NCBI GenBank assembly: GCA_038227635.1
Contig: JBBRPT010000006.1
Span: forward strand, 1-64,000
Source: Leptolyngbyales cyanobacterium
GTDB taxonomy: Bacteria; Cyanobacteriota; Cyanobacteriia; Leptolyngbyales; Leptolyngbyaceae
DNA length: 64,000 nt
Direction of reading: 5' to 3'
Program-made: the position numbers and the translations under genes
Part shown: positions 41,913 through 55,907 of the stretch, piece by piece
Layout of the letters: every line of letters starts with the position of its first letter
Numbering within the stretch: position 1 is the first letter of the stretch
The notes under the pieces: generated by a model
The model's database searches: none
What the model was told of the DNA's origin: nothing
The model's input: only the letters and a program-made list of their open reading frames with translations

Positions 41913-42668
41913 CTAAAAAGCGTTGGACACAACCGATTGTTCAACCTTCGATACCAACCGCAGCAAATTTTCCCCTAGAACTAGGGTTTCTTTTACCGGA
42001 GATAATCCAAGCAATCGAATTTTTTGGAGTTCAAGGGCAGGATGTAACCAAGGACCATCAGTGCCAAACAATACTTTGTGAGCACCTCCTCTTTGGACTG
42101 CTTGTGCTAAGTAATCAAACCGACGTACACCGGATGTATCGGTATAAACATTAGGAAAGCGAACAATTTGATCAATTACACGGATATGAGCCGTCCAGTC
42201 GTCTGCAAAGCTTCCTAAGTGAGGAATAATAAAGTTCACGTCAGGATATTGAGCTGCCAGCAAATCAATAATTTCAGTCTTGCCAGCGGGGTCATAAAGC
42301 AGCGGTAACCGAAACCTTTGAGCAACCTCGCAAAGTTCACGAGTGGCGGGGGCATCCAGTCGATGGGCTTTGATTCCGCAAAATCCCCATTGAATTACGG
42401 CTTGTTTAACGATCGTATGAACCCGTCCGCGATCGCGCTGAGCATGAACAAAGGCAAATCCCAAAAAACGCCCTGGATATCTGGCAATAATCCGAGCGGT
42501 ATTGGCATTCGCCTGAGCGTAATCGCTATGAAACGGAGCAAAGATCACAGTTTTATAAATGCCCACCGCTTGTGCCCGTTTCAAATACGTTGCGATCGGT
42601 GCATCGGTATCCCAAGGACCGGTTAACAAGTCGCCTTTTCCAGCATGGCAATGGCAATCGATAATCAT
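41913..42668 (-). CDS. Amidohydrolase-2 family (TIM-barrel metal-dependent hydrolase)
   Basis: N-terminal IIDCHCHAG metal-binding motif. 251 aa. 4-nt overlap with the upstream M20 gene. Confidence 0.72.
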   Translation of the reverse strand: MIIDCHCHAGKGDLLTGPWDTDAPIATYLKRAQAVGIYKTVIFAPFHSDYAQANANTARIIARYPGRFLGFAFVHAQRDRGRVHTIVKQAVIQWGFCGIKAHRLDAPATRELCEVAQRFRLPLLYDPAGKTEIIDLLAAQYPDVNFIIPHLGSFADDWTAHIRVIDQIVRFPNVYTDTSGVRRFDYLAQAVQRGGAHKVLFGTDGPWLHPALELQKIRLLGLSPVKETLVLGENLLRLVSKVEQSVVSNAF

Positions 42669-44074
42669 TGTGTATACTCCGCAAAGAAGCGAATTACAGT
42701 CTCAATACCGTGAAAGAAGTTCGGTAAACTCATCTTTTCGTTGGGAGCGTGAATATCATCATCCGGTAATCCGAATCCCAGCAGCACGATCGGCACTTGC
42801 AGCCGTCGATGGAGGTGTTCGACTAGGGGAATTGAGCCGCCGCTGCGAGTGAACACAGGGGGAATGCCCCAAGTTTGCTCAACCGCTCGAATGGCAGCCT
42901 GCATCACTGCACTCTTTTGAGGCAACAAAACCGGACGCGATCTGCCCGTAATTTTTAAGCGGCTACGGATTGCGGGATGACTCAAGGATTTCAGATGGTG
43001 TTCCAGCAGTTGGGCAATTTCGGTGGGTTCTTGATCCGGAACCAGTCGCAGACTCAATCGAGCAATTCCTCGACTGGGAATGACCGATTTCGCACCTGCG
43101 CCTGTGTAACCACCCGCTAATCCATTAATCGTCAAGGCTGGGCGACTGGTCATGCGCTCAAACAAGTCGTAGCCAGGTTCACCCCAGCCCAAGGGCACAT
43201 CAAGGTCAGCTAAGATTTGCTGGTTGCGTTTACAGGCGCAGCGAAGTTGTTGTCGTTCTGTTGGTTGGAGGTCTCGAACCTGCTGATAGAAACCAGGAAT
43301 CGCCACTTTTCCGGTGCGATCGTGCAGTCCTGCAATCATTTCGCTCAAGGCTTGCAGGGGATTCAGCACGGCTCCTCCATATCGCCCAGAGTGCAGATCG
43401 TGCTTGGGTCCGCGCACTTCTAGTTCACAGTTGAGATTGCCGCGCAGTCCATAGATGATTGAGGGTCTGCCGCGTCCTAGCATCTCGGTGTCAGAGACCA
43501 AGACCGCATTAGCTTGAAGTCGTTGCACTTGTCGATCGAGAAACGCAGCTAAGTTCGGACTATTGATTTCCTCTTCCCCTTCTAGCCACACTTTGACATT
43601 GATCGGCAAGGTTCCAGTTGTTCGCAAGTAGCTCTCGATCGCTTTTAAGTGGATAAATAACTGTCCTTTGTCGTCGCTGGCTCCACGAGCAAACAAGCTG
43701 TCTCCCACTATGGTCGCTTTGAACGGATGCGATCGCCATTCATCGATTGGATCAACAAGCTGTACATCATAATGCCCATATAGCAATAACGTTGGCTTTC
43801 CGGTTGCCATTAACCAATCTGCATAGACACTGGGTGCGCCGCCATTCACGCTTGGAATCACTTGAACACGATGCAGACCAATTTCTGCTAAGTGTTGCGC
43901 TAACCACTGGGCACAGGCTTTGATGTCTTTTCGGTGCTGAGGAAGTGCAGAAATAGTAGGGAAAGCGATCAGTTCAGACAGTTGGGAGAGCCAGCGCGAT
44001 CGCATTTCTGGTTGCTGGCTGTAGAGCAGGGGTGCAATTGCTGCTGGTGAAGAGACAAGCATCGCTTTCGCCAA
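42665..44074 (-). CDS. M20 family metallopeptidase (dipeptidase / ArgE-DapE-like)
   Basis: LLLYGHYDVQ...GASDDKGQ motifs. 469 aa. Confidence 0.85.
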   Translation of the reverse strand: MAKAMLVSSPAAIAPLLYSQQPEMRSRWLSQLSELIAFPTISALPQHRKDIKACAQWLAQHLAEIGLHRVQVIPSVNGGAPSVYADWLMATGKPTLLLYGHYDVQLVDPIDEWRSHPFKATIVGDSLFARGASDDKGQLFIHLKAIESYLRTTGTLPINVKVWLEGEEEINSPNLAAFLDRQVQRLQANAVLVSDTEMLGRGRPSIIYGLRGNLNCELEVRGPKHDLHSGRYGGAVLNPLQALSEMIAGLHDRTGKVAIPGFYQQVRDLQPTERQQLRCACKRNQQILADLDVPLGWGEPGYDLFERMTSRPALTINGLAGGYTGAGAKSVIPSRGIARLSLRLVPDQEPTEIAQLLEHHLKSLSHPAIRSRLKITGRSRPVLLPQKSAVMQAAIRAVEQTWGIPPVFTRSGGSIPLVEHLHRRLQVPIVLLGFGLPDDDIHAPNEKMSLPNFFHGIETVIRFFAEYTQ

Positions 44075-44137: not shown

Positions 44138-45265
44138 TTAAAGAGGTCGATCTAGATTTGGATAGTCTCGATCAAGGTTCCAATCGCACTGACCCCGGTA
44201 ACAACCTGTGCCAACAGCGATTAGCATCCGCCGGTGCTGTCGTTCCTCTTTCAGCTTGTTCCCCGCCCGATTTGCAGCTTCATTGGCGATCGCAATTAAC
44301 TTCTCCTGCTCAGAGGACAATCCTCGGATTCGAGCCATAAACGCCTGCTCTTTTTTACGACCCAAACCATCGCCTGTATGAACATCAAAGATCATCGACA
44401 GCCCCCGAATCGTTCGTAATCCGAGTCGTCGAGTGATGGCTACGCAGGTTGTGATTCTGCCGCTCACGTCTTCTATTTGCAGACGACAGTAATCTGGATC
44501 GGAACACAGGCGAAGTAAGGTACTACTCCAGCGAAAACAAAGCTTTTCAGCACTTGCTTGTCGCACTGCATCCCTAGGTGGCAAAGCAATCAGGTTCTTC
44601 AACTTCTCGGTATCTGCTCCGAAGAACTCTCGTAACCGCCCAGTTTGACGCTCAAATTTTGTGAGCATTGCTTGTAGAGTCCCAGCCGCTAGATTCCACT
44701 GAATCATGCCCATCGAGATGCCATCGACCTCAGACACCCGACACCCAAACTCTCTGTTGTTTTCAAACCGAGTGGTAATTCTCAAAGCAATCAACTCAGC
44801 TTCGCTTAGTTTCGTTGGAGGCAGACACGCTACTTGCCCACCAACATTACAACTCCGTTTACGCTTGCGGGAGCGCTCTGCAATAAAATTGGCAGCATCT
44901 CTCACTTGTCCAGTTCTCTGTAAGTCACCCACCGGAGGCGGCAAAACCCTTGTGATAACAACTTTACGAGCGTAATCAATCCGAGGTATATTCACCATTG
45001 ACAAGAATGGAGTACGATTTGTCCACAAAGCATCGAGTGTTTGAGGTGCTAAACCATCGAGCACACGCAGCATTTCGTACATATTCAAGCCATTCAAGTT
45101 GAGATAAGCACTTCTCCAATCACTGACTCGTACAGCACTCTCAAAAGCTCGACGAACTGAGCTAGGTGTATATTCAAACTCTAGTAGTTTCCATTCTGCT
45201 TCTAATGGTTGATCGCGATATCTAACTGAAACGGGTTCAAATAGCCATTGTGTGGTTCGACTCAT
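44138..45265 (-). CDS. Uncharacterised protein G of the minus-strand block; N-terminal motif MSRTTQWLFEPVS
   Basis: About 375 aa from the ATG at 45265. No confident domain; the FGCRVSEVDGISMGMIQW segment suggests a possible glycoside-hydrolase/lysozyme-like region. Confidence 0.5.
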   Translation of the reverse strand: MSRTTQWLFEPVSVRYRDQPLEAEWKLLEFEYTPSSVRRAFESAVRVSDWRSAYLNLNGLNMYEMLRVLDGLAPQTLDALWTNRTPFLSMVNIPRIDYARKVVITRVLPPPVGDLQRTGQVRDAANFIAERSRKRKRSCNVGGQVACLPPTKLSEAELIALRITTRFENNREFGCRVSEVDGISMGMIQWNLAAGTLQAMLTKFERQTGRLREFFGADTEKLKNLIALPPRDAVRQASAEKLCFRWSSTLLRLCSDPDYCRLQIEDVSGRITTCVAITRRLGLRTIRGLSMIFDVHTGDGLGRKKEQAFMARIRGLSSEQEKLIAIANEAANRAGNKLKEERQHRRMLIAVGTGCYRGQCDWNLDRDYPNLDRPL

Positions 45266-45293: not shown

Positions 45294-46178
45294 TCACAGC
45301 GATCTAGAAGCAATGATCGTGAATAAGGCATTAAAGAGCCTGTTCAAAGTGTCGCGGTTCTTGAGAGATTGTTCTGTTAAATCGCCCCCCTTTGCCCGGC
45401 GAGCGAACTCTAACAGAAAGCGCCGAGTGACTTGATCGAACTCGCCAGTTTCTGAAATGCTTGCTCCTAATAGACTGTTCAGCGATTCTTGAACAAAGAC
45501 TAGTGTTGATTTTTGCAGCGGATTTCGAGGTCGTCCCCGATTCATGTCACAGTGAAAATGATCGCGGTGATCGGAGCGGTGATAGTCGATCACAGTAGTA
45601 AAAGAGAGCCTGAGACAGGCATTCATGCGGCGCAAGATTGCTCTTTCTGCCGGATTGCGGAAGTTATGAACGATCGTTTCTCGATTGGAGCTAGAAGAGA
45701 TGCCCGATTGTTGCCAGCGCAGCCCAGCAATGTCGATCGCATCGCCAAAAGAATGATTGCTCAATGTGTCTGTGTTACTGATACATCGACATAGATAAGA
45801 GCCGAGGGTTAGAATCGCTTCGATCGGTAAGCCAAATTGAGTCATATTGTTAACAAAGGTACTCAACGCTGTTTCAACTGATGGAATAAACCGCTGCGTT
45901 CTAGGGCGCAATCGCTTGCTTACCACAATCAAGGGTGTGCTTGGATCTTTCCGAACTGCATCTACATACTCAAAAGGGATACCATTTACGGCTTGGACAC
46001 ACAGCAAATTTGGAATAGCTGGACAAACTTTAGGCGTTTTACAGCGTAGCTTTGTTGTGCTGGCAGCTTCAGAACAAGTGCGACGGGCTGAAGTCGGAAC
46101 TAGCTCCCATTCAGTTTCGCCAAGCCACCCATCGGTTCGAGTCGGTATTTCAAACTGCAAAGGATTTTGCTGCCTCAT
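45294..46178 (-). CDS. Peptidase M15-like (LAS zinc D,D/L,D-peptidase) protein H; N-terminal MRQQNPLQFEIP
   Basis: SNHSFGDAIDI matches the M15 SxHxxGxAxD zinc-binding motif. DHRDHFHCD matches the second His motif. The ATG overlaps the TGA of upstream gene F (ATGA). Confidence 0.6.
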   Translation of the reverse strand: MRQQNPLQFEIPTRTDGWLGETEWELVPTSARRTCSEAASTTKLRCKTPKVCPAIPNLLCVQAVNGIPFEYVDAVRKDPSTPLIVVSKRLRPRTQRFIPSVETALSTFVNNMTQFGLPIEAILTLGSYLCRCISNTDTLSNHSFGDAIDIAGLRWQQSGISSSSNRETIVHNFRNPAERAILRRMNACLRLSFTTVIDYHRSDHRDHFHCDMNRGRPRNPLQKSTLVFVQESLNSLLGASISETGEFDQVTRRFLLEFARRAKGGDLTEQSLKNRDTLNRLFNALFTIIASRSL

Positions 46179-47125
46179 CGGGTCACCTCTGTTGAGTTCT
46201 TCAGAAATGGAGTCGCTTTGATACGGGTTTCCCAATAAGTAATCGGGACTCTGTTGTGATCGCCTGTTGTTGATCGATTTACCGAGACGTTAGAGAGTTT
46301 TTGCCGCTTTGCATATATTTGTAAACTGGTTGCCAGAGGTGCAGTTTGACTGTTGGCAATGTAGTAAATGAAGAGATTACTGGTGGGATTCCGCTTTGCC
46401 CAACTTCCCCAGCCCGTATCATCTCCAGTGTTATACGTACAATCAAATCCCCAGCATTCACGGATTTTGCTTGCATAAGTAGCTTTAGAAAGCGCGATCG
46501 TTCTCATCGGTAAACCGCCCCCTGAATGACAGGCAAGAATCAGATTACCAAGGCTGAGCGGTTGATCAAACTGCATGGAAGGCGCGTAATACGTCCGAAT
46601 TGCTGCTAACACCTGATCAATGTAAGCATCGAAGCCACTGGCTTGAGTGAGATTGCCGGATTCCGATCGCGACCCTAAAGTTGGAGCGACGAGAATAGCA
46701 TTTTTACTGCTGGCATTGACTCCTTCTCGAAATGCAAAGAACGGATAGAACTGTCGATTCCAATATTGGTCGATCGTCAAGTTCGTTGGATAGTAGCCAG
46801 GAGCCGGAGATCGACCGCGCTGAACTGGAGTGCGATGATGACCCTGGAGGTAGAGAATCAGATCGACCTGAGGTGTAAACCGATAGTTAGCAGGCAGAAA
46901 AACCCCGGTCATGGGTTGCGGACAGACTTTAGTGCGATCGCGCTTTGTGCTACATCCAAGATTGATGTTGAGATAGAGAGTTGAGAAGAGGGGTTGAGAT
47001 TCTGACCGAATCAAGGATGGAGCAGCTTGAGTCGGAGATTCAAATAGCCCATTCTGCTCAAAGTTTAGATAAGAAGTCGGGCTGCGTGAAGGAGCCTCGA
47101 ACATCCACTGAGTTGAACGATTCAT
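46175..47125 (-). CDS. Putative alpha/beta-hydrolase-like protein F; N-terminal MNRSTQWMFEAPS
   Basis: ILACHSGGG is a nucleophile-elbow-like Sm-x-S-x-Sm. GGAG sits 9 nt upstream of the start. Confidence 0.5.
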   Translation of the reverse strand: MNRSTQWMFEAPSRSPTSYLNFEQNGLFESPTQAAPSLIRSESQPLFSTLYLNINLGCSTKRDRTKVCPQPMTGVFLPANYRFTPQVDLILYLQGHHRTPVQRGRSPAPGYYPTNLTIDQYWNRQFYPFFAFREGVNASSKNAILVAPTLGSRSESGNLTQASGFDAYIDQVLAAIRTYYAPSMQFDQPLSLGNLILACHSGGGLPMRTIALSKATYASKIRECWGFDCTYNTGDDTGWGSWAKRNPTSNLFIYYIANSQTAPLATSLQIYAKRQKLSNVSVNRSTTGDHNRVPITYWETRIKATPFLKNSTEVTR

Positions 47126-47154: not shown

Positions 47155-48048
47155 CTATCTCATGACATTTGGGGCAGGCATCATCCCGTTCGATCGTGCA
47201 AATACCGGATCGGGTCGTGTTCCACGAGGAGGAGGACCTGGCTGGTAAATATTGCGCGGGGGTGGAGTGGGACGGCTGATCCGCATTCCTTCTTCGCTGG
47301 AGATCCATTCTTCAGAGTATTCGGCGATGCGGTAGAGCAACGCTTCAAAGTCAGTGCGGTTCTTCTTGAGGACGAAGGGTTCGGCTAACCAACGGATGAT
47401 TTCTCGTCCAGCAACCGCCATCCGGTTCATCGTACTGGCGTGAACGGATTGACCAAAGTATTGCCACAAAACTAGTTCAATCATTTCCCAGGCATTAGCA
47501 GCCCCAAACTGGGCGCGAACATCGGGAGCATCTAGAACCTTAAAGGCTTCCGCTAATGCTTGACTGGTTTCTACCCGCAGCACATTGATATAGCCGTAAG
47601 AAGAGTTCTTCAAGTTGTTGCGTAAATCGAGTCCGGTTCGACGGACGATCGCCATGGAACCAAAGGTCGGATCAGTGGCATTTTGGCGAATCACTTCGCT
47701 AATTCGTTTGTCGCGCCAGAACTTTGCGGTTTCGCTGATAAAGTGAGTGAAAAGTCCATGAAACTCTGGATTGGCACGAGCGCCCGGTCCCGGATCGCGC
47801 CCATAGCCTAAGACCCGCGTATAGGCCCGACGGCGATCGCCCTGTTGGTAGCGCAAAAGGTTGTGCTTATCAAAGCGGTAGAGTCCGTAAGCCCCTTCGC
47901 CGCTGGAAATTCGCAAGGTTCCGGCTCGGAATAGCTCTTGCAACTTGTGCATCACTTTAAACACACCCAAAAATTCATGGATAGCGATGTAGTAGAGGTC
48001 GCCTGCCGCAAGGATGCGATCGCTGGTCACCGTATCGTCGTAATCCAC
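47155..48048 (-). CDS. Uncharacterised protein E (GTG start; probably the 3' part of a frameshifted longer gene)
   Basis: The frame stays open upstream to 48120 without an ATG (..GGLADLIGLGNTAPTNLGATQVSSGIVDYDD). ORF 48117..48311 ends in a G5 run where one extra G would fuse the two frames. Confidence 0.5.
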   Translation of the reverse strand: MDYDDTVTSDRILAAGDLYYIAIHEFLGVFKVMHKLQELFRAGTLRISSGEGAYGLYRFDKHNLLRYQQGDRRRAYTRVLGYGRDPGPGARANPEFHGLFTHFISETAKFWRDKRISEVIRQNATDPTFGSMAIVRRTGLDLRNNLKNSSYGYINVLRVETSQALAEAFKVLDAPDVRAQFGAANAWEMIELVLWQYFGQSVHASTMNRMAVAGREIIRWLAEPFVLKKNRTDFEALLYRIAEYSEEWISSEEGMRISRPTPPPRNIYQPGPPPRGTRPDPVFARSNGMMPAPNVMR

Positions 48049-48116
48049 AATGCCGCTGGAAACCTGGGTTGCTCCTAAATTGGTGGGTGCCGTGTTGCCT
48101 AACCCGATCAGGTCGG

Positions 48117-48311
48117 CTAGTCCCCCATCCGGCGGAACGCCTTTGCCATTTGGGCTTCATCAAATTTGCGAACCTGATCATCCACCGTTCGGTTCAGCAC
48201 TTCTGCCAATTGAGGATTGGCAACCAACTCTGGACCCAGTTGTTCAATGGTGTTTTGCAGGAGCGCAGCAATACGATCGTTGCGCTGGTCGTAATCTCTG
48301 GTGTTCGGCAT
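48117..48311 (-). CDS. Small ORF E-prime (64 aa), likely the N-terminal part of protein E separated by a homopolymer frameshift
   Basis: MPNTRDYDQRNDRIAALLQ...AFRRMGD, followed by a stop within GGGGGAC TAG. Confidence 0.4.
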   Translation of the reverse strand: MPNTRDYDQRNDRIAALLQNTIEQLGPELVANPQLAEVLNRTVDDQVRKFDEAQMAKAFRRMGD

Positions 48312-48424: not shown

Positions 48425-49954
48425 CTAACTCTCCCCAGGTGGACTAGTCGGGGGAACCGTGCTACCCACTCCCAGATCTGCCAGTGTATCGAGTTGGAAG
48501 AGCAACTCACTCAAGGTTTGCTGCACCCGCTCAAAAGACAGCACTCTGTCTAGCAGTAAGCCCTTGGAGGGGTCGCTTTTAAGGGTGGACAAGACAATCC
48601 CAATCACCCAGAACAAGGTATCTGCCTGGTCGGTGACAAAATCTAAGCCAAACTGACCTGAAGCGGACAAGATAGATGGCGCTTCCAGGGTGGCAAACCG
48701 CTCAACCCACTCGTTGAAATCATTGACGGTGATGTCCGGTAGCAGCAAGCTAAACGTGGTGGGACTGGAGAACAACGACAGGCTGATGTCGATCGCGTTG
48801 GGAGAGTTGATCGCGTTGGAAGGGTTAGGTCTCGTCCGAGGAGATCCTAAGATCGAGAACAGTGCGGTATCCGATCGCCGCTCGCTGGCAGTAAATCCGA
48901 TCGAATCCATTGCCGCCATCAGGCTAGTATTGCTATCTGAAATCACGGGCAACATGATGTAAGACCGCGACAGCCGCTCACTATAGCGCCCTGTTACGTT
49001 TGTCTCCACGTCATTGGTTACAGCGAACTGCTCAAAAATTGTTCTTAATGTACCTGCATAGTTTTTCAGTAACTCAAAGCCTGCAACTTGTGTTTCGTCT
49101 GACAGTGTGACTGGGAAAACCTCTGTGCCGTTTCTTTGCCCTCGGAATCCACCCCGATCGACCAACCGTGCTTGTTCGCCCAATTGAATAATCGAACCAT
49201 CTAGCGTGTTGAGATACGTTTCCACCCGTTCTCGACGGGGTTCATCAATGCGTCCAAATTCATCAACTAAAGTGTTGATTTGCGATCGAATCAACGCCCG
49301 TAATGCTTCCACCGCATCAATATCCGCTATGGGATCAAAGGGTTGCAGTGCCTCCAAAACCCGCAGGGCATCTGCCGCAATAATGCTTGTCTGACGATAG
49401 AGATTTGCCTGTTCCACAGACAACTGACCCACGCCACTGCTATTCGGTGGTGCTGACCTGTAACCGGCGGCTGCATCATTGCCGAGACTGTCAGGTGAAT
49501 AGTAGCCGTTGCCCACGGTGGAGTAATTGCCGCTTCCGTTCAGGGAAACGATACTGCGAGTGGGCGTCATCATCACTTTGCCATGAGCATCCGTTGGGAA
49601 AGCACTGTTCAAGGCATTAACAAATCCATCATATCCGCGTCCCGGTGTTCGCCCTAAAACCTGAGTCAGCGCCCGTTCTACCTGCTGAGTTAAGGCATTT
49701 GCGTTTCCACTGGCACTAGAGCGAGAGGAGCCATTGTCGTAGATGGTCGGTTCATTGCCTGCCGATCGTCCTAAGATTTGGGCAATTTGAGCCAACTGCT
49801 TGGGAATGGCTTCTGTAAGCTGTGGCTGTAAAAAAAGGCTGTTCAGGAGAACCTGACGCATTTCTTGCAATTGGTCTCTTTGTCGTAGATTCTGAAGCTG
49901 CCCATCGTTGAGCACCTCACCGTTGATCAGCGTTCCGAAAACTGGAAAAGCCAT
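48425..49954 (-). CDS. Uncharacterised protein D (509 aa)
   Basis: Long ORF co-oriented within the block. Gly/Ser/Asn-rich central region. No motif recognised. Confidence 0.55.
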   Translation of the reverse strand: MAFPVFGTLINGEVLNDGQLQNLRQRDQLQEMRQVLLNSLFLQPQLTEAIPKQLAQIAQILGRSAGNEPTIYDNGSSRSSASGNANALTQQVERALTQVLGRTPGRGYDGFVNALNSAFPTDAHGKVMMTPTRSIVSLNGSGNYSTVGNGYYSPDSLGNDAAAGYRSAPPNSSGVGQLSVEQANLYRQTSIIAADALRVLEALQPFDPIADIDAVEALRALIRSQINTLVDEFGRIDEPRRERVETYLNTLDGSIIQLGEQARLVDRGGFRGQRNGTEVFPVTLSDETQVAGFELLKNYAGTLRTIFEQFAVTNDVETNVTGRYSERLSRSYIMLPVISDSNTSLMAAMDSIGFTASERRSDTALFSILGSPRTRPNPSNAINSPNAIDISLSLFSSPTTFSLLLPDITVNDFNEWVERFATLEAPSILSASGQFGLDFVTDQADTLFWVIGIVLSTLKSDPSKGLLLDRVLSFERVQQTLSELLFQLDTLADLGVGSTVPPTSPPGES

Positions 49955-49993: not shown

Positions 49994-51364
49994 TTACCGC
50001 CTGCCGAGAATGCGGTAGAAATTATCGGTAATGGTTTGAGGAGTGGCAAGTTGGCGATCGAGGGCAAACCTCGCCGCACTGATCATAAAACGGACGGGAA
50101 TGGTACCGGGATCTTGTCCGGCGGCAAGTCGCTGTCCTGCCAATTCCACCATCGCCATTTGCTGAGGTCCGAAGGGGATTGCCTGGGCCAGAGACTTGTT
50201 GCCAAACTGACGATACGGTTGAAAAACCATCGTATCTACGACCATTTCGGCAGCCGGATAAAAGGTTTTCATGAAATCAGGGGGAATGTCGTTGGGCGTG
50301 ACTCTGGGATAGAGCCGTTGCCAGATCCGCGTCAGATCCGCCGCCATTTTGTCAAACCCCATGCGGCGCAGCAAAATCAGGTTGATCAGCGTTCGCAGAT
50401 AGGGCGTGGGATGGACGGACATGCCGCTAAATTGAACCGTGCTGGCGGGCGATCGCCCCACCACATCCATCAACGATTCCACCGCAGCCGGACCACCCAA
50501 AACCAGAGCAAACATATCTGCCATGGTTTCTTTGTGCCAGCGTGCCCAGACCTGGGCGACCTGGGCAGGAAATTTACCTTCGGTGGTCAGGCGTTGATAG
50601 AGGCGGGCAGGGATTTCTTCCCACAATCCCAAATCTGCCTGAAGATTATGCGACACCTCATGCAGAATGCTAGAGAGTGCCCAGACATTATCTAATCGAT
50701 GTTGCGGCAACATGATCAGCGGAAACGGATTGGGATTGCGTCGCAGACGCATAATCGGCACCCCCCGACGAAAGGTTGCCGGACTAAAGCCACTGTTGGC
50801 ATAGCTAAACGGCAGCAAACTGGGCGTGGGTTGAGCCGTTCCCAGACCTACGTAGAGGTCTTCATAGCAATTGGCACAGATGCGATCGACCGATCGTAAG
50901 CGTTCGCCAAAATTAGAGAGCCGCTGGATGAATAAATCGAAGTAAAAATCCCAAATGCCTTCGACATAAAGCACCTGGCTGCCCACCTTCTGCTTGCGCT
51001 CTAACAACACTTGCAGGCGGCTGGTGGTGGGTTCTCGGCGGGCAGCGGCAGCGGCAGCTTCCACCCAGCGAGACATTTCGACTAATTGACTGCGGAATTG
51101 GTCAATGAATCGATTCACCGCTTCAATATGTGCCTCGCTTGGAGCCGCCACCCCGCTGCCAAACTCATCATTACGAAAAGGACGCAGCGATTTGGCATGG
51201 CGGGTAAGGTTAATCGACTGAATATTCAGCCAGTTATCCAGCAGGAGCCGTTCACTGGCGGTGGTTGCTCCTTTCATCACCGTTGCAGTCGCTTGCGCTG
51301 GGGCAGCAACTTTAGAATCTGAAGGCGAGTGTTGAGGCGGGGCAGAAGAGTTTGCCATGATCAC
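49994..51364 (-). CDS. Uncharacterised protein C with HExxH zinc-metallopeptidase-like motif
   Basis: ILHEVSHNLQADLGLWEE: HExxH with a downstream Glu. 456 aa. Confidence 0.55.
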   Translation of the reverse strand: MIMANSSAPPQHSPSDSKVAAPAQATATVMKGATTASERLLLDNWLNIQSINLTRHAKSLRPFRNDEFGSGVAAPSEAHIEAVNRFIDQFRSQLVEMSRWVEAAAAAARREPTTSRLQVLLERKQKVGSQVLYVEGIWDFYFDLFIQRLSNFGERLRSVDRICANCYEDLYVGLGTAQPTPSLLPFSYANSGFSPATFRRGVPIMRLRRNPNPFPLIMLPQHRLDNVWALSSILHEVSHNLQADLGLWEEIPARLYQRLTTEGKFPAQVAQVWARWHKETMADMFALVLGGPAAVESLMDVVGRSPASTVQFSGMSVHPTPYLRTLINLILLRRMGFDKMAADLTRIWQRLYPRVTPNDIPPDFMKTFYPAAEMVVDTMVFQPYRQFGNKSLAQAIPFGPQQMAMVELAGQRLAAGQDPGTIPVRFMISAARFALDRQLATPQTITDNFYRILGRR

Positions 51365-51422: not shown

Positions 51423-52583
51423 TTAGCGACCTGCCGCAGCACGGCGGCTGGCACACGCCGGACACTGACCATTTCTAGTGGCGGTGGCACGGCGGGGGTT
51501 GGGAGGTGCCGTGCGTTGACGCAGAACGGCATTCCGCACGATCGCCCGTTGCACCAGTTGGGGATTGCTCAACACACGCTGGCTAGCGGCTGCCATTGCC
51601 TTGACTGCCAGAGGACCTGTGATCGGCTGACCGGATTTAGAAGCCGCTTTCAGCGTGGCGATCGTCCGTCGTTGAATGGTGGGTACGGTTCGCAGCAGTT
51701 GCCGCCCGATCGGACCTTGTTGGCGTAACGTCTTCACAAGTTGACTATTTGCCTGTGCCAAAATTGGCATCACCGGACGCAGTGCCCGTCGTCCGCCCAT
51801 AATCGTAATCGTGATCGGCAAGGCTGCGCCCAGGGTAGATTCTGCTTCGGCTTCGGTAGCGGCTTCTGCCGATTGCGCTGCTAGAAATTCGGTCAGTGCC
51901 GCTTCATGGGCGACTTCTGTATTTCCAACTTCGGCTTCCGATTCATTGGTGCCAAAGAATTCTGACTCCATCTGTCCCGCTTCCATTTCCCCTTCTTGAA
52001 CCAGGGCACTGGTGAGTTTGGCGGCAAGGGGTCCTGCGATCGGACCAATGCCCGGAATCAAGGCAGCGAGTTTACCCGCTACGATCGGAGCAAATCGCTT
52101 TGCTAGAGGAGCCGCTACTTTTGCAATCTTACCAATGCCTCGTTTGACCGCACGAAACGCTTTCTTGAAGAAATACTCACCCTCATCTTCGGGATTGGAG
52201 TAAGGATTACTGTAGTGGGCTGCTTCGTGGCTGGTTTCCCATTCATCCTCAAACTCAGGATTGGAGTAAGGATTGGAGTAAGGATTGCTGTAGTGGGCTG
52301 CTTCGTGGCTGGTTTCCCATTCATCCTCAAGCTCAGGATTGCTGTAGTGGGCTGCTTCGTGGCTGGTTTCCCATTCATCCTCAAGCTCAGGATTGCTGTA
52401 AGGATTGCTGTAATGGGCAGCTTCATGGCTGGTTTCCCATTCATCCTCAAACTCAGGATTGCTGTAGTGGGCAGCTTCGTTTTCCCATTCATCCTCAAAC
52501 TCAGGATTGCTGTAAGGATTGCTGTAATGAGCTGCTTCATGGGAAGCAGGAGCCTCAAACATTGCTTGATGTTGCGTTACCAT
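51423..52583 (-). CDS. Acidic tandem-repeat protein B (paralog of A); N-terminal MVTQHQAMFEAPAS
   Basis: Six repeats of EAAHYSNP(YSNP)nE[FL]EDEWETSH. Then a cationic stretch FFKKAFRAVKRGIGKIAKVAAPLAKRFAPIVAGKLAALIPGIGPIAG. Then an Arg-rich C-terminal domain. Confidence 0.6.
   Translation of the reverse strand: MVTQHQAMFEAPASHEAAHYSNPYSNPEFEDEWENEAAHYSNPEFEDEWETSHEAAHYSNPYSNPELEDEWETSHEAAHYSNPELEDEWETSHEAAHYSNPYSNPYSNPEFEDEWETSHEAAHYSNPYSNPEDEGEYFFKKAFRAVKRGIGKIAKVAAPLAKRFAPIVAGKLAALIPGIGPIAGPLAAKLTSALVQEGEMEAGQMESEFFGTNESEAEVGNTEVAHEAALTEFLAAQSAEAATEAEAESTLGAALPITITIMGGRRALRPVMPILAQANSQLVKTLRQQGPIGRQLLRTVPTIQRRTIATLKAASKSGQPITGPLAVKAMAAASQRVLSNPQLVQRAIVRNAVLRQRTAPPNPRRATATRNGQCPACASRRAAAGR
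52190..52560. repeat. Tandem 51-66-bp coding repeats inside gene B
   Basis: Repeated CTCAGGATTGCTGTA(AGGATTGCTGTA)GTGGGCTGCTTCGTGGCTGGTTTCCCATTCATCCTCAA units. ORFs 52115..52558(-) and 52215..52589(+) are off-frame readings of these repeats. Confidence 0.85.
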
Positions 52584-52664
52584 TCGTAAAACTCTCCTTG
52601 TGAATTAGGGTGGGAGTACGTGTCAAGGGTTGAACCCCGATCGGGGCATTCCTGCTGCTTCAGG

Positions 52665-53555
52665 TCAAGCGGCAGCAACGGCTCGTTGTCGGATCACCGC
52701 GTTGCGAATCATTGCCTGCCTGACCATTTGGGCGTTCCCAAAAACGCGGGCAGCATGAGCCGCTATGACTCGTCGAACCAGCGTTGCCGTGATCGAACGA
52801 CCCAATCGCGGTGCCGCTCGTAAACTTGCGATCGTTCGCCGTAGAATCGTGGGAATCAGTCGGAGTAAGCGTCGCCCTGCCGTACCGCGTCGATGCAGTA
52901 AATGGACTAAATGGGCAGTTGCGGCAATCAACACAGGCATCAGCGATCGCAGCCGTCGTCTGCCCCCCGCACTCCGCACTGCGATCGGAACCACCGTGCC
53001 AATTAAAGCCGATGCTTCACTGGGATTGCGACTGTGGCTCGCTTCTGCCGCCAATACCTCGGTCAAAGCAGCTTCTTGAGCGGCTTCTGAATCACTCGCT
53101 TCGGCTTCTGCTGCATAAAGACCAAAGAATTCTGCTTCCAGATACTCTGTTTCCAGATCACCTTCTTGAAGCAAAATGCTGATGAATCTGCGCGCCATCG
53201 GAGTTGAAACTAACCCCGATCGAGGAGTCGCTCCAAGCAGCGTTCGGGCGACGATCGGAGCTAGATGTTGGGCAAACGGTGCAGTTACTCTCGCAACTTG
53301 CCGAATGCCTTGAAGGGCTTGTCTAAAGGAAAACTCTGCTTCCCACTCACTTGCCATTTCGGTATGAGGGTAATGCGAAGCTTCCTGGGTTTCCCATTCG
53401 TATTCGTCCCCCCGATAGGAGTAAGGTCGAGAATCGTGAGTTGTTCTGAACATCTCCCATTCATCGGGTCGTTGCGGATGAGAATAGTGAGTTGCTTCAA
53501 ACAGGTTATTGCTATTACCTAGTCCTTTTCCATTAGTATTCGCGTATCCACTCAT
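52665..53555 (-). CDS. Acidic-repeat protein A (paralog of B), first gene of the block
   Basis: N-terminal degenerate HYS.P...DEWE repeats (…NNLFEATHYSHPQRPDEWEMF…). Shares conserved APFAQHLAPIVA, LQEGD...EAEFFG and Arg-rich C-terminal domain with B. Confidence 0.55.
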   Translation of the reverse strand: MSGYANTNGKGLGNSNNLFEATHYSHPQRPDEWEMFRTTHDSRPYSYRGDEYEWETQEASHYPHTEMASEWEAEFSFRQALQGIRQVARVTAPFAQHLAPIVARTLLGATPRSGLVSTPMARRFISILLQEGDLETEYLEAEFFGLYAAEAEASDSEAAQEAALTEVLAAEASHSRNPSEASALIGTVVPIAVRSAGGRRRLRSLMPVLIAATAHLVHLLHRRGTAGRRLLRLIPTILRRTIASLRAAPRLGRSITATLVRRVIAAHAARVFGNAQMVRQAMIRNAVIRQRAVAAA

Positions 53556-54754: not shown

Positions 54755-55168
54755 ATGGATGCTAATAATGACGAAAATCTGAGTTCAGATCCTCAAAATT
54801 TTCTGTCTTTAGACCAAGAAATTTTGCTGAACTGTTTAGTGAAAAAGGTTTCTCAAGCTGAACCTTTGAAACGTCTTCAAGCGGCTGAAGAAACGGTTAA
54901 CGAAATCATAATCGAATCTGACATTGATGGAACGCATTATTATCTTGTTCGGTGTACACCAAAGTCTGCTCTCCAAGTTAATTTGAGTCCGCGTGAGTTT
55001 GCGATCGCTCGCCTAGTTGCTCAAGGGTTTCCAAACAAATGTGTTGGTAATCAGCTCAACATTAGCCCTTGGACTGTTGCGACTCATGTCCGTCGTATTT
55101 TTGCTAAGCTAAGCGTCAATTCAAGGACGGCAATGGTATCAAAGCTGATGGAAGCAGGTTTGTTGTAG
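54755..55168 (+). CDS. LuxR-family HTH transcriptional regulator (no receiver domain)
   Basis: C-terminal LSPREFAIARLVAQGFPNKCVGNQLNISPWTVATHVRRIFAKL. Confidence 0.7.
   Translation: MDANNDENLSSDPQNFLSLDQEILLNCLVKKVSQAEPLKRLQAAEETVNEIIIESDIDGTHYYLVRCTPKSALQVNLSPREFAIARLVAQGFPNKCVGNQLNISPWTVATHVRRIFAKLSVNSRTAMVSKLMEAGLL

Positions 55169-55361: not shown

Positions 55362-55907
<546 letters not shown>

Follow-up and report, generated by a model that had tools for sequence, protein, structure and literature searches.

A conserved multi-phylum gene cassette marked by two charge-segregated proteins that share a leader with cell envelope hydrolases

Proteins A and B are encoded by two adjacent genes in a 64,000-nucleotide window (the whole stretch of DNA analysed here, positions 1 to 64,000 of contig JBBRPT010000006.1) from a Leptolyngbyales cyanobacterium. 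Both open reading frames (ORFs) lie at 51423-53555, where a sequence-only reading, made by a model without database searches, had placed them. They are the first of ten minus-strand genes arranged head to tail with short gaps or overlaps, which run from the gene for A through a gene for an Amidohydro_2 hydrolase. A and B are conserved, leader-bearing, charge-segregated hallmark proteins of this cassette, which is found in several phyla. The two proteins and the parts of B are encoded as follows (aa, amino acids):

52665..53555, minus strand: protein A, 296 aa, paralogous to B; three degenerate acidic units, then cationic segment (+7), acidic patch (-12) and Arg-rich domain (+21)
51423..52583, minus strand: protein B, 386 aa, taken from the ORF list, with leader, acidic repeat array, cationic hairpin and acidic/Arg-rich helical domain
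52482..52583, minus strand: leader of B, aa 1-34, MVTQHQAMFEAPASHEAAHYSNPYSNPEFEDEWE, a FEAP box followed by an EWE box
52192..52527, minus strand: DNA tandem array that codes for the acidic units of B, from Tandem Repeats Finder
52176..52583, minus strand: acidic N-terminal region of B, aa 1-136, net charge -36, no Lys or Arg, predicted to be disordered
51996..52175, minus strand: cationic segment of B, aa 137-196, net +11, no Asp or Glu; amphipathic helix, IPGIGPIAGP turn and second helix
51798..51995, minus strand: second acidic region of B, aa 197-262, net -15, no Lys or Arg; EFFG, HEAALTEFLAAQ and EAEAE motifs
51426..51797, minus strand: Arg-rich C-terminal region of B, aa 263-386, net +23, no Asp or Glu; PPNPRR and CPxC at the end

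The 85 charged residues of B fall into four pure blocks (-36/+11/-15/+23) and change sign only three times, compared to a mean of 40.8 and a minimum of 23 switches in 20,000 shuffles. This charge segregation is far beyond chance. A switches sign 12 times (shuffle mean 31.1), and none of 20,000 shuffles was as low. In the same test, the neighbouring proteins C, D and E and the M20 dipeptidase are indistinguishable from shuffles. A and B are paralogs with 45% identity over 282 aa (BLASTP, E value 6e-73), which agrees with the earlier description of A as a degenerate version of B. The cationic segment of A is weaker than that of B. In addition, the cationic stretch, the acidic patch EGEMEAGQMESEFFG and the Arg-rich C-terminus read from the sequence of B are all present. 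B starts with MVTQHQAMFEAPASHE and has no hydrophobic N-terminus. The A-type paralogs form a subfamily of their own with the conserved N-terminus M-x-x-[YH]-A-N-G-N-G-[KR]-G (window 53500-53555; P0268, P0271, P0272, P0276). Their N-terminal region is far less acidic (net charge from about -1 to -9), and the FEAP box has a degenerate form, which in the window reads NLFEAT. A-type paralogs are optional, with 0-2 copies per locus.

In the DNA array of B, Tandem Repeats Finder detected periods of 48, 54, 66 and 78 bp and a 12-bp YSNP sub-repeat. Matches amount to 88-100% for the four periods (72% for the row with the 66-bp consensus) at scores of 175-286. Thus, the array proposed by the sequence-only reading exists, and its repeat length of 51-66 bp has to be replaced by 48-78 bp. 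At the protein level, six units of 16-26 aa each can be counted, the number given before; five of them terminate in EDEWE and the last one in EDEGE. Their length differences are mainly due to the number of YSNP sub-units. The repeat number varies between species: nine loci have four to eight units, and among 108 homologs the count ranges from 0 to 10 with a mode of 4-5. Within each gene the units are homogenised, e.g. five identical copies of ATHEATHYSQPYSSPEFEDEWE in locus L004. Variable number and homogenisation together show ongoing expansion, contraction and concerted evolution, as had been suspected from the YSNP sub-repeats.

Homologs were searched with the repeat-free C-terminal 250 residues of B. 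This yielded 315 proteins at an E value ≤1e-3, the top 120 of which share 61-80% identity with B and are without exception named 'hypothetical'. Named homologs come from the filamentous cyanobacteria Nostoc, Leptolyngbya, Oculatella, Phormidesmis and Alkalinema; the closest genome is a Phormidesmis metagenome-assembled genome (MAG) with 90% protein identity over the best aligned segment. A profile of repeat-free B recovered 680 clusters at 50% identity from a library of 1.8 billion proteins, 375 of them at an E value ≤1e-10. Close cyanobacterial homologs retain the whole architecture of B. Distant members carry unrelated N-terminal repeat units (GEGELE, EDELGE, EAGWGE, FLGGLLKGAGSLLGLGEGEDE and others) and keep the order of the parts: acidic array, E-(Q/E)-F-F-G junction, cationic segment, acidic stretch with HEALAE(L/M)MAA...EAEA, Arg-rich domain. 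Medians over 84 full-length representatives are 98 aa for the length of the N-terminal extension, -27 for its net charge (71 of them are at -10 or below) and +18 for the charge of the final 100 aligned residues. For the cationic segment, the median charge is +7 (72 of the 84 have +5 or more) and the median hydrophobic moment 0.70, which means that it is conserved in orthologs. The lack of conservation that would have refuted the sequence-only reading is thus not observed. Small-xxx-G motifs are present in 65 representatives.

Some database members are tandem fusions of an A-type and a B-type protein in one ORF (P0241, 651 aa; P0242, 526 aa; P0247, 480 aa), which may be real fusions or gene-calling read-throughs. 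In P0247, an N-terminal Cys-rich segment resembling a 4Fe-4S ferredoxin is fused to a B-type protein. A divergent member of the B family, P0388 (461 aa; L015-L017, 10001-11386), carries a long insert rich in Gly, Lys and Arg where other members have the acidic array. It is encoded by a lone gene between holA and rpsT, near lptE, phoH, ybeY and era, on at least 23 contigs.

A helical hydrophobic moment of 0.83, a value reached by none of 2000 shuffles, was calculated for the initial 18 aa of the cationic block of B (FFKKAFRAVKRGIGKIAK). This supports the amphipathicity that the sequence-only reading had assumed. The acidic/cationic junction of B is EGE-YFFKK, and its family form E-x-E-G-E-[YF]-F-F is nearly invariant. 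Invariant columns of the second acidic region are E201, E206, F210, G211, E227, A229, L230 and E232. In an AlphaFold2 model of B (61-sequence alignment, mean predicted local distance difference test score [pLDDT] 71), the acidic arm is predicted to be disordered, with a pLDDT below 50 for aa 1-131. Two long helices follow at 135-173 and 181-210 with the IPGIGPIAGP turn between them, and then an all-helical domain of ~135 aa (~aa 223-358, pLDDT 95-98), in which acidic helices precede Arg-rich helices. The modelled helices of the second acidic region comprise aa 223-240 and 244-261 (pLDDT 89-97). At the C-terminus (window 51426-51470), most cyanobacterial B proteins have PPNPRR and then a single CPxC; the second paralogs in loci L013 and L018 likewise have tails with CxxC. 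The lone CxxC of B might serve to bind a metal between subunits or to receive a modification.

The N-terminus of B is shared with other proteins of the cassette. Nearly every gene in a variable slot of the cyanobacterial loci starts with M-x(2-5)-Q-W-L-F-E-A-P; examples are MNKQTQWLFEAPSVSE, MNRQSQWLFEAPAET and MKTQSQWLFEAPVVS. The FEAP box is often followed by an acidic stretch that ends within 20-40 residues in an E-W-E-like box. B opens with both boxes (QAMFEAP...EFEDEWE), A with NLFEAT. In the window, the variable slot contains the genes for F, G and H. The further cassette genes and an adjacent regulator gene are:

49994..51364, minus strand: protein C, 456 aa, probable zinc metallopeptidase with HEVSH...KETMAD
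48425..49954, minus strand: protein D, 509 aa, fold unrecognised, 37-57% identity across loci
47155..48311, minus strand: protein E, 385 aa in orthologs, all-alpha and very conserved; the window copy is frameshifted at ~48150
46175..47125, minus strand: protein F, 316 aa, leader-tagged and encoded in the variable slot, no domain recognised; L003 and L008 have orthologs
45294..46178, minus strand: protein G, 294 aa from the ATG at 46178, leader-tagged M15-type peptidoglycan peptidase (Extensin-like_C, E value 4.9e-13; Peptidase_M15_4)
44138..45265, minus strand: protein H, 375 aa from the ATG at 45265, leader-tagged, no recognised domain
42665..44074, minus strand: M20 dipeptidase (Peptidase_M20, E value 2.6e-25; NF006053 dipeptidase, 516 bits)
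41913..42668, minus strand: Amidohydro_2 metal-dependent hydrolase (PF04909, E value 2.2e-17), the last cassette gene
54755..55168, plus strand: LuxR/GerE-type helix-turn-helix regulator, divergent from A

The leaders read MNRSTQWMFEAP...GLFESP in F, MRQQNPLQFEIP...ETEWE in G (true start 46178) and MSRTTQWLFEPV...EAEWK in H (true start 45265). The motif is also present in 11 further loci, on genes of the variable slot. In the six-frame translation of the entire window it occurs only four times, at the N-termini of B, F, G and H. A hidden Markov model (HMM) was derived from the first unit of B-family proteins alone and searched against 228,520 ORF residues. It matched the N-termini of effectors, i.e. 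of the leader-tagged proteins: a PLD protein (E value 4.5e-9), a 144-aa protein (6.8e-9), an F-like protein (2.2e-7) and others down to F of the window (0.03). All cassette genes outranked the first unrelated ORF (0.75 or worse). Since HMM and motif show the same leader on B and on the payload genes, the array of B is the second half of this leader in multiple copies. The effectors carry one or two copies of the EWE box. In L013 the leader is different (LEYELE / ELEFELE) and is again common to the B-like proteins and an effector, here one resembling phospholipase A2 (PLA2), which also has the junction GEAEQFFG.

Pfam searches with the tagged proteins identified VanY (twice), Extensin-like_C/Peptidase_M15 (G of the window), GH25 lysozyme together with PG_binding_1, PG_binding_1 together with SLT, Amidase_2, DUF2272/CHAP, OmpA-like (three times), PLD and phospholipase A2. 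The tagged repertoire consists essentially of endolysins plus lipases: the other leader-bearing members of the cassette degrade or bind the cell envelope. The sequence-only reading had suggested an anionic region that masks the cationic segment. This interpretation is supported in part. Its charge logic is conserved and can be retained. The mask is not private to B, because its unit is half of a leader common to hydrolases and phospholipases.

Multi-copy, near-identical units could also be the product cores of a factory for peptides similar to ribosomally synthesised and post-translationally modified peptides (RiPPs). Here, C, M20 and Amidohydro_2 would cut and trim the acidic units into acidic signal or metal-ligand peptides, and the C-terminal domain would be the recognition element. 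Three hydrolases in the operon and several precursor paralogs per locus would suit such a pathway. It is nevertheless very improbable: large enzymes carry the same leader, the unit sequence is unrelated between lineages (YSNPEFEDEWE, GEGELE, EAGWGE) with acidity alone conserved, and the cluster contains neither a known maturase family nor a transporter. The families recognised in it are only M20, Amidohydro_2, envelope hydrolases, phospholipases, peptidoglycan (PG)-binding domains and the GerE-type regulator. The core-like pattern itself is one of units that are repeated, lineage-specific, always acidic and common to the enzyme leaders.

The genes for F and G share an ATGA start/stop overlap (46175-46178) and those for M20 and Amidohydro_2 overlap by 4 bp (42665-42668). 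This apparent translational coupling supports a single operon from A to the amidohydrolase. The cyanobacterial loci examined, L001-L011, all have the gene order A/B in one to three copies, C, an optional X, D, E, the variable slot, usually M20, and Amidohydro_2. X is a small helical protein encoded between C and D. The synteny A/B, C, D, E, variable slot, M20, Amidohydro_2 is kept in 14 loci from Cyanobacteria, a Ktedonobacteraceae MAG, an Acidobacteriota-type lineage and Paraburkholderia. Outside the cyanobacteria, the cassette is located on a contig of the Ktedonobacteraceae (Chloroflexota) MAG (L012), in L013, a lineage in which E groups with a protein of Bryobacteraceae (Acidobacteriota), on a 2.4-Mb replicon of Paraburkholderia sp. 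PGU19 (Burkholderiales; L018) and in a distant metagenomic lineage (L022). M20 is frequently retained and is linked in Nostoc, Phormidesmis, Paraburkholderia and L022; Amidohydro_2 is found at the 3' end in loci that reach that far. GerE genes adjoin the cassette in most loci. The feature formed by A and B is real, highly non-random and conserved across phyla, and it belongs to no described family or system.

A promoter/terminator scan of the window gave counts equal to those in shuffles, and scans with Rfam and for tRNAs gave no matches in the window. For the 1.2-kb intergenic region between A and the LuxR gene, no conservation in relatives was found. Beside the LuxR gene, a plus-strand ORF of 61 aa (window 55371-55556), apparently truncated, resembles what we take to be the N-terminus of a serine recombinase/resolvase and may be the remnant of a mobile element. 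Transposase genes flank the cassette in L001 and L002. Large proteins of the STAND-type nucleoside triphosphatase/WD40 type are encoded next to it in Paraburkholderia (L018, 14616-18605) and in Nostoc sp. GT001 (L002, 1-3255). This may be a coincidence, such genes being abundant in these genomes, or reflect a link to regulation or conflict systems. On a fragmented contig with actinomycete-like neighbours (L021), the cassette is apparently present, too.

Among cyanobacteria, C is 73-91% identical to the window copy. Its motif H235-E-V-S-H239 is invariant in nine of nine sequences and also kept in L012, L013 and L018. In K278-E279-T-M-A-D283, the residues K278, E279, A282 and D283 are invariant, and RETFAD or REMFSD variants occur in other phyla. 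E-T-M-A-D follows 40 residues past HEVSH, and HEVSH together with E-x-x-[AS]-D is invariant across phyla. We take this pair of motifs to be the signature of gluzincin zinc peptidases (HExxH...NExxSD in thermolysin-like enzymes). C has the HExxH and the downstream Glu in E-x-x-x-D; its spacing differs from that of thermolysin. Nine orthologs of C gave no Pfam match even at an E value of 10, its profile gave no PDB match at 10 and there was no match in NCBIfam, and C did not fall into a catalogued peptidase family. Encoded directly downstream of B, C is by its motifs a plausible processing peptidase.

D is conserved in the cassette but fast-evolving. E is the most conserved cassette protein, with more than 3000 sequence clusters. 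An HK97/encapsulin shell was considered for E and rejected, as the model of E is all-alpha; neither a shell nor a carrier fold was recognised in it. In the window, the gene for E reads CCCAAATGGCAAAGG at 48140-48155 where orthologs have CAA AAT GGC AAA (QNGK), and is one A short in an A-run. The frameshift splits the 385-aa protein into an N-terminal piece of 58 aa and an ORF of 297 aa, and an identical 297-aa protein is on record at NCBI (P0121). Either the homopolymer was misread in sequencing, or the mutation is real and inactivates the gene. A distant E-like domain (24-29% identity) is located inside 600-aa proteins of a different, larger cluster, found on the Tolypothrix sp. PCC 7712 plasmid NZ_CP063787.1 (L019, 8065-9912) and on pBPJTT of Burkholderia pyrrocinia (L020, 8272-10077). 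This cluster encodes an S8 serine peptidase, a peptidoglycan-binding protein, an alpha/beta hydrolase or a 1254-aa N-acetylmuramoyl-L-alanine amidase, and hypothetical proteins. Protease, E-like protein and wall hydrolases may together define a wider superfamily of cassettes.

Searches for known relatives were largely negative. A and B have no meaningful match in Pfam (even at an E value of 10), NCBIfam, PHROGs or PADLOC, and the family libraries gave nothing meaningful for ten distant members of the B family. The same four libraries contain nothing meaningful for C, D, E, F, H and X (Pfam again up to 10), except for a match of H to phrog_30036 (function unknown, 1.8e-8); a relative of H in L008 carries DUF2272/CHAP. 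None of the proteins A to H matches an anti-phage defence model in PADLOC. A holin-family match is absent for A and B in Pfam and PHROGs, and A and B do not show the gasdermin pore-forming fold. Sequence searches of the PDB with profiles of B, C, D and E and with the single sequences of F, G and H yielded nothing meaningful; the profile of B retrieved a single row with an E value of 1.6 from all PDB sequences. No described family or known fold was recognised for the core proteins A/B, C, D, E and X. Searches of the full-text literature, also with the peptide strings WLFEAP, YSNPYSNP and EFEDEWE, retrieved no description of family or cassette, and the cassette is not mentioned in an eLife paper of 2020 on conflict systems in multicellular prokaryotes. 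Hence, the impression gained from the sequence that no characterised family has this architecture still holds.

B is helical, charged and repetitive, the operon encodes endolysin-type domains, and H matches a PHROG. These properties would be expected of a phage structural protein (scaffold or tape measure) or a prophage lysis module, the former already named by the sequence-only reading as an alternative. This origin is largely refuted and scarcely credible. Profiles of B and E found no relatives in IMG/VR, a tblastn search with E found none in INPHARED, and phage origin was rejected on these scans. In addition, the model of B has no fold match in BFVD at an E value ≤1e-3, the sole PHROG row of B is marginal (phrog_2078, function unknown, 0.003, no domain stretch passing), and no locus contains capsid, portal, terminase or tail genes.

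An Arg-rich region with a charge of +23 and no acidic residue over 124 aa might bind polyanions, i.e. RNA, DNA, teichoic-acid-like polymers or polyphosphate, with the acidic segments as autoinhibitory mimics. The position of the lone divergent member between holA and rpsT, near ybeY and era, would agree with this function. The tight linkage to envelope hydrolases in several phyla and the common leader argue against it, and the Arg-rich domain has no similarity to known nucleic-acid-binding folds. Binding of polyanions as the role of B is quite improbable.

No cassette protein has a signal peptide, the tagged enzymes included. In the loci examined, neither a Sec/Tat component, a type 1 to type 9 secretion apparatus (T1-T9SS) or a known signal for them was found, nor were genes or Pfam families for an ATPase, a channel, an ABC transporter or a C39 peptidase. 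In the cassette proteins scanned, no 19-residue window reaches a Kyte-Doolittle value of 1.6, with the exception of one window in the optional X of L012. The maximum of B, 1.57 at aa 164-182 (FAPIVAGKLAALIPGIGPI), is the most hydrophobic element outside a conserved soluble core. C scores 1.58 at aa 284-302, inside its conserved soluble metallopeptidase-like region.

Wall hydrolases made in the cytoplasm would have to cross a membrane, and the only candidate for a membrane-prone element is the cationic, amphipathic, glycine-zipper-like hairpin of A/B. For this reason, we tentatively favour A/B as protease-activated membrane permeabilisers, similar in effect to holins or antimicrobial peptides (AMPs), that would give the tagged enzymes access to the envelope. 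The payload proteins (A/B, peptidoglycan hydrolases, PG-binding proteins and phospholipases) would be made in the cytoplasm with an acidic leader, and the five or six EWE copies of B would form a disordered arm of -36 that neutralises its own cationic parts. Upon induction, probably through the adjacent LuxR-type regulator, C would remove the leader or the acidic array, most likely near the EGE-[YF]FF junction. Removal would free the cationic amphipathic helix and the glycine-zipper-like helix, perhaps the Arg-rich domain, too. The freed hairpin might then insert into the membrane and permeabilise it, and wall- and lipid-degrading enzymes would reach the envelope. The producer might thereby be lysed in a controlled manner, or the enzymes might be released or taken up to act against neighbours. 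Cleavage by C, the membrane activity of A/B as well as direction and purpose of lysis are what we infer here. Small untagged genes that could confer immunity are mostly absent, which speaks against an antibacterial weapon and fits self-lysis.

Several observations weigh against permeabilisation by A/B. No classical transmembrane helix is predicted in either protein, the maximal value of 1.57 being below 1.6. The part of B with the highest conservation and the most confidently modelled fold is not a short cationic peptide but the acidic/Arg-rich helical domain, to which the proposed mechanism assigns no clear role. The probable peptidase identity of C is based on motifs, with no match in Pfam or PDB. 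The mechanism does not account for D, E, X, M20, Amidohydro_2 or the C-terminal CPxC motif of B, though E is the most conserved protein. Furthermore, the cassette of Paraburkholderia (L018) has no effector in the variable slot, and no gene for C, D or E is present within 10 kb of the lone B-like P0388.

The main rival explanation is a scaffold, decoy or adaptor. The array of B would bind the receptor of the effector leaders (C, D, E or X), or the Arg-rich domain would bind the acidic leaders. In either case, an electrostatic complex or condensate would form, in which B holds, titrates or packages the enzymes. B as a block polyampholyte with a disordered arm would be suited for this task. Its repeats copy the EWE box, of which the effectors have one or two, and variable, homogenised repeats are expected of a module tuned by valency. 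The high conservation of the Arg-rich domain would be accounted for as well. A scaffold is still unlikely: it leaves the route of signal-less peptidoglycan hydrolases to the wall and the conserved amphipathic Gly-zipper-like hairpin unexplained, and E has no recognisable shell or carrier fold.

With A/B as permeabilisers, a broader proposal can be formulated. A/B together with C, D and E might constitute a new leader-directed pathway in at least four phyla that unleashes or exports signal-less hydrolases and phospholipases without a known apparatus and uses A/B as protease-armed conduit. We regard this as possible, if doubtful. Such a pathway would amount to a novel type of programmed lysis or protein translocation, and its N-terminal sorting signal would be FEAP...EWE in Cyanobacteria and E/L/F-rich variants elsewhere.

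The leader ties endolysin-type wall hydrolases and phospholipases to two block-polyampholyte proteins, which makes the hypothesis directly testable. If the cassette is a device for regulated autolysis, it could explain sacrificial death in filamentous bacteria, as in the necridia of cyanobacteria, or the release of public goods by lysis. We know of no established molecular mechanism for necridia formation. If it is an export route, it would represent a new secretion principle. In practice, the leader might serve as a portable tag. The cationic hairpins are a large natural library of amphipathic peptides with neutralising partners, relevant to the engineering of endolysins and antimicrobial peptides.

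Four groups of known systems invite comparison. Effectors with T6SS MIX/FIX or T7SS LXG motifs (types VI and VII secretion) and bacteriocins with double-glycine leaders likewise bear a short N-terminal mark on unrelated wall- or lipid-degrading proteins encoded beside a conserved core. The cassette motif QWLFEAP...EWE is unrelated to these marks, apparatus, ATPase, ABC transporter and C39 peptidase are lacking, and immunity genes are mostly absent. The logic of an autoinhibited membrane-disrupting protein beside a protease is also that of bacterial gasdermins and their adjacent activating proteases.

The prepropeptides of defensins, cathelicidins and dermaseptins consist of a secretory signal peptide, an anionic propiece and a cationic peptide. 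As in these AMP precursors, an anionic region in B directly precedes a cationic amphipathic helix, the charges are roughly balanced and release by a protease is presumed. In contrast to them, A/B are bacterial and cytoplasmic, their acidic part is an array of a leader shared with enzymes, and a second acidic/basic pair forms a folded domain; a sequence relationship does not exist. Because B has no signal peptide, it is not an AMP prepropeptide in the eukaryotic sense.

Holins are small proteins with at least one transmembrane domain. A/B differ from them by size (300-450 aa), acidic arrays and a folded Arg-rich domain and have neither a transmembrane helix nor holin homology. Compared to holin-endolysin systems, the components of the cassette share an N-terminal leader, an HExxH protein, D, E, M20 and Amidohydro_2 are added, and a phage context is missing. 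Nevertheless, holin-endolysin and Cid/Lrg systems likewise co-encode signal-less peptidoglycan hydrolases with a candidate membrane-targeting element, and the cassette contains the endolysin-type domains GH25, Amidase_2, VanY/M15, CHAP and SLT. In function, the cassette would be most like a lysis module of the holin-endolysin or Cid/Lrg type.

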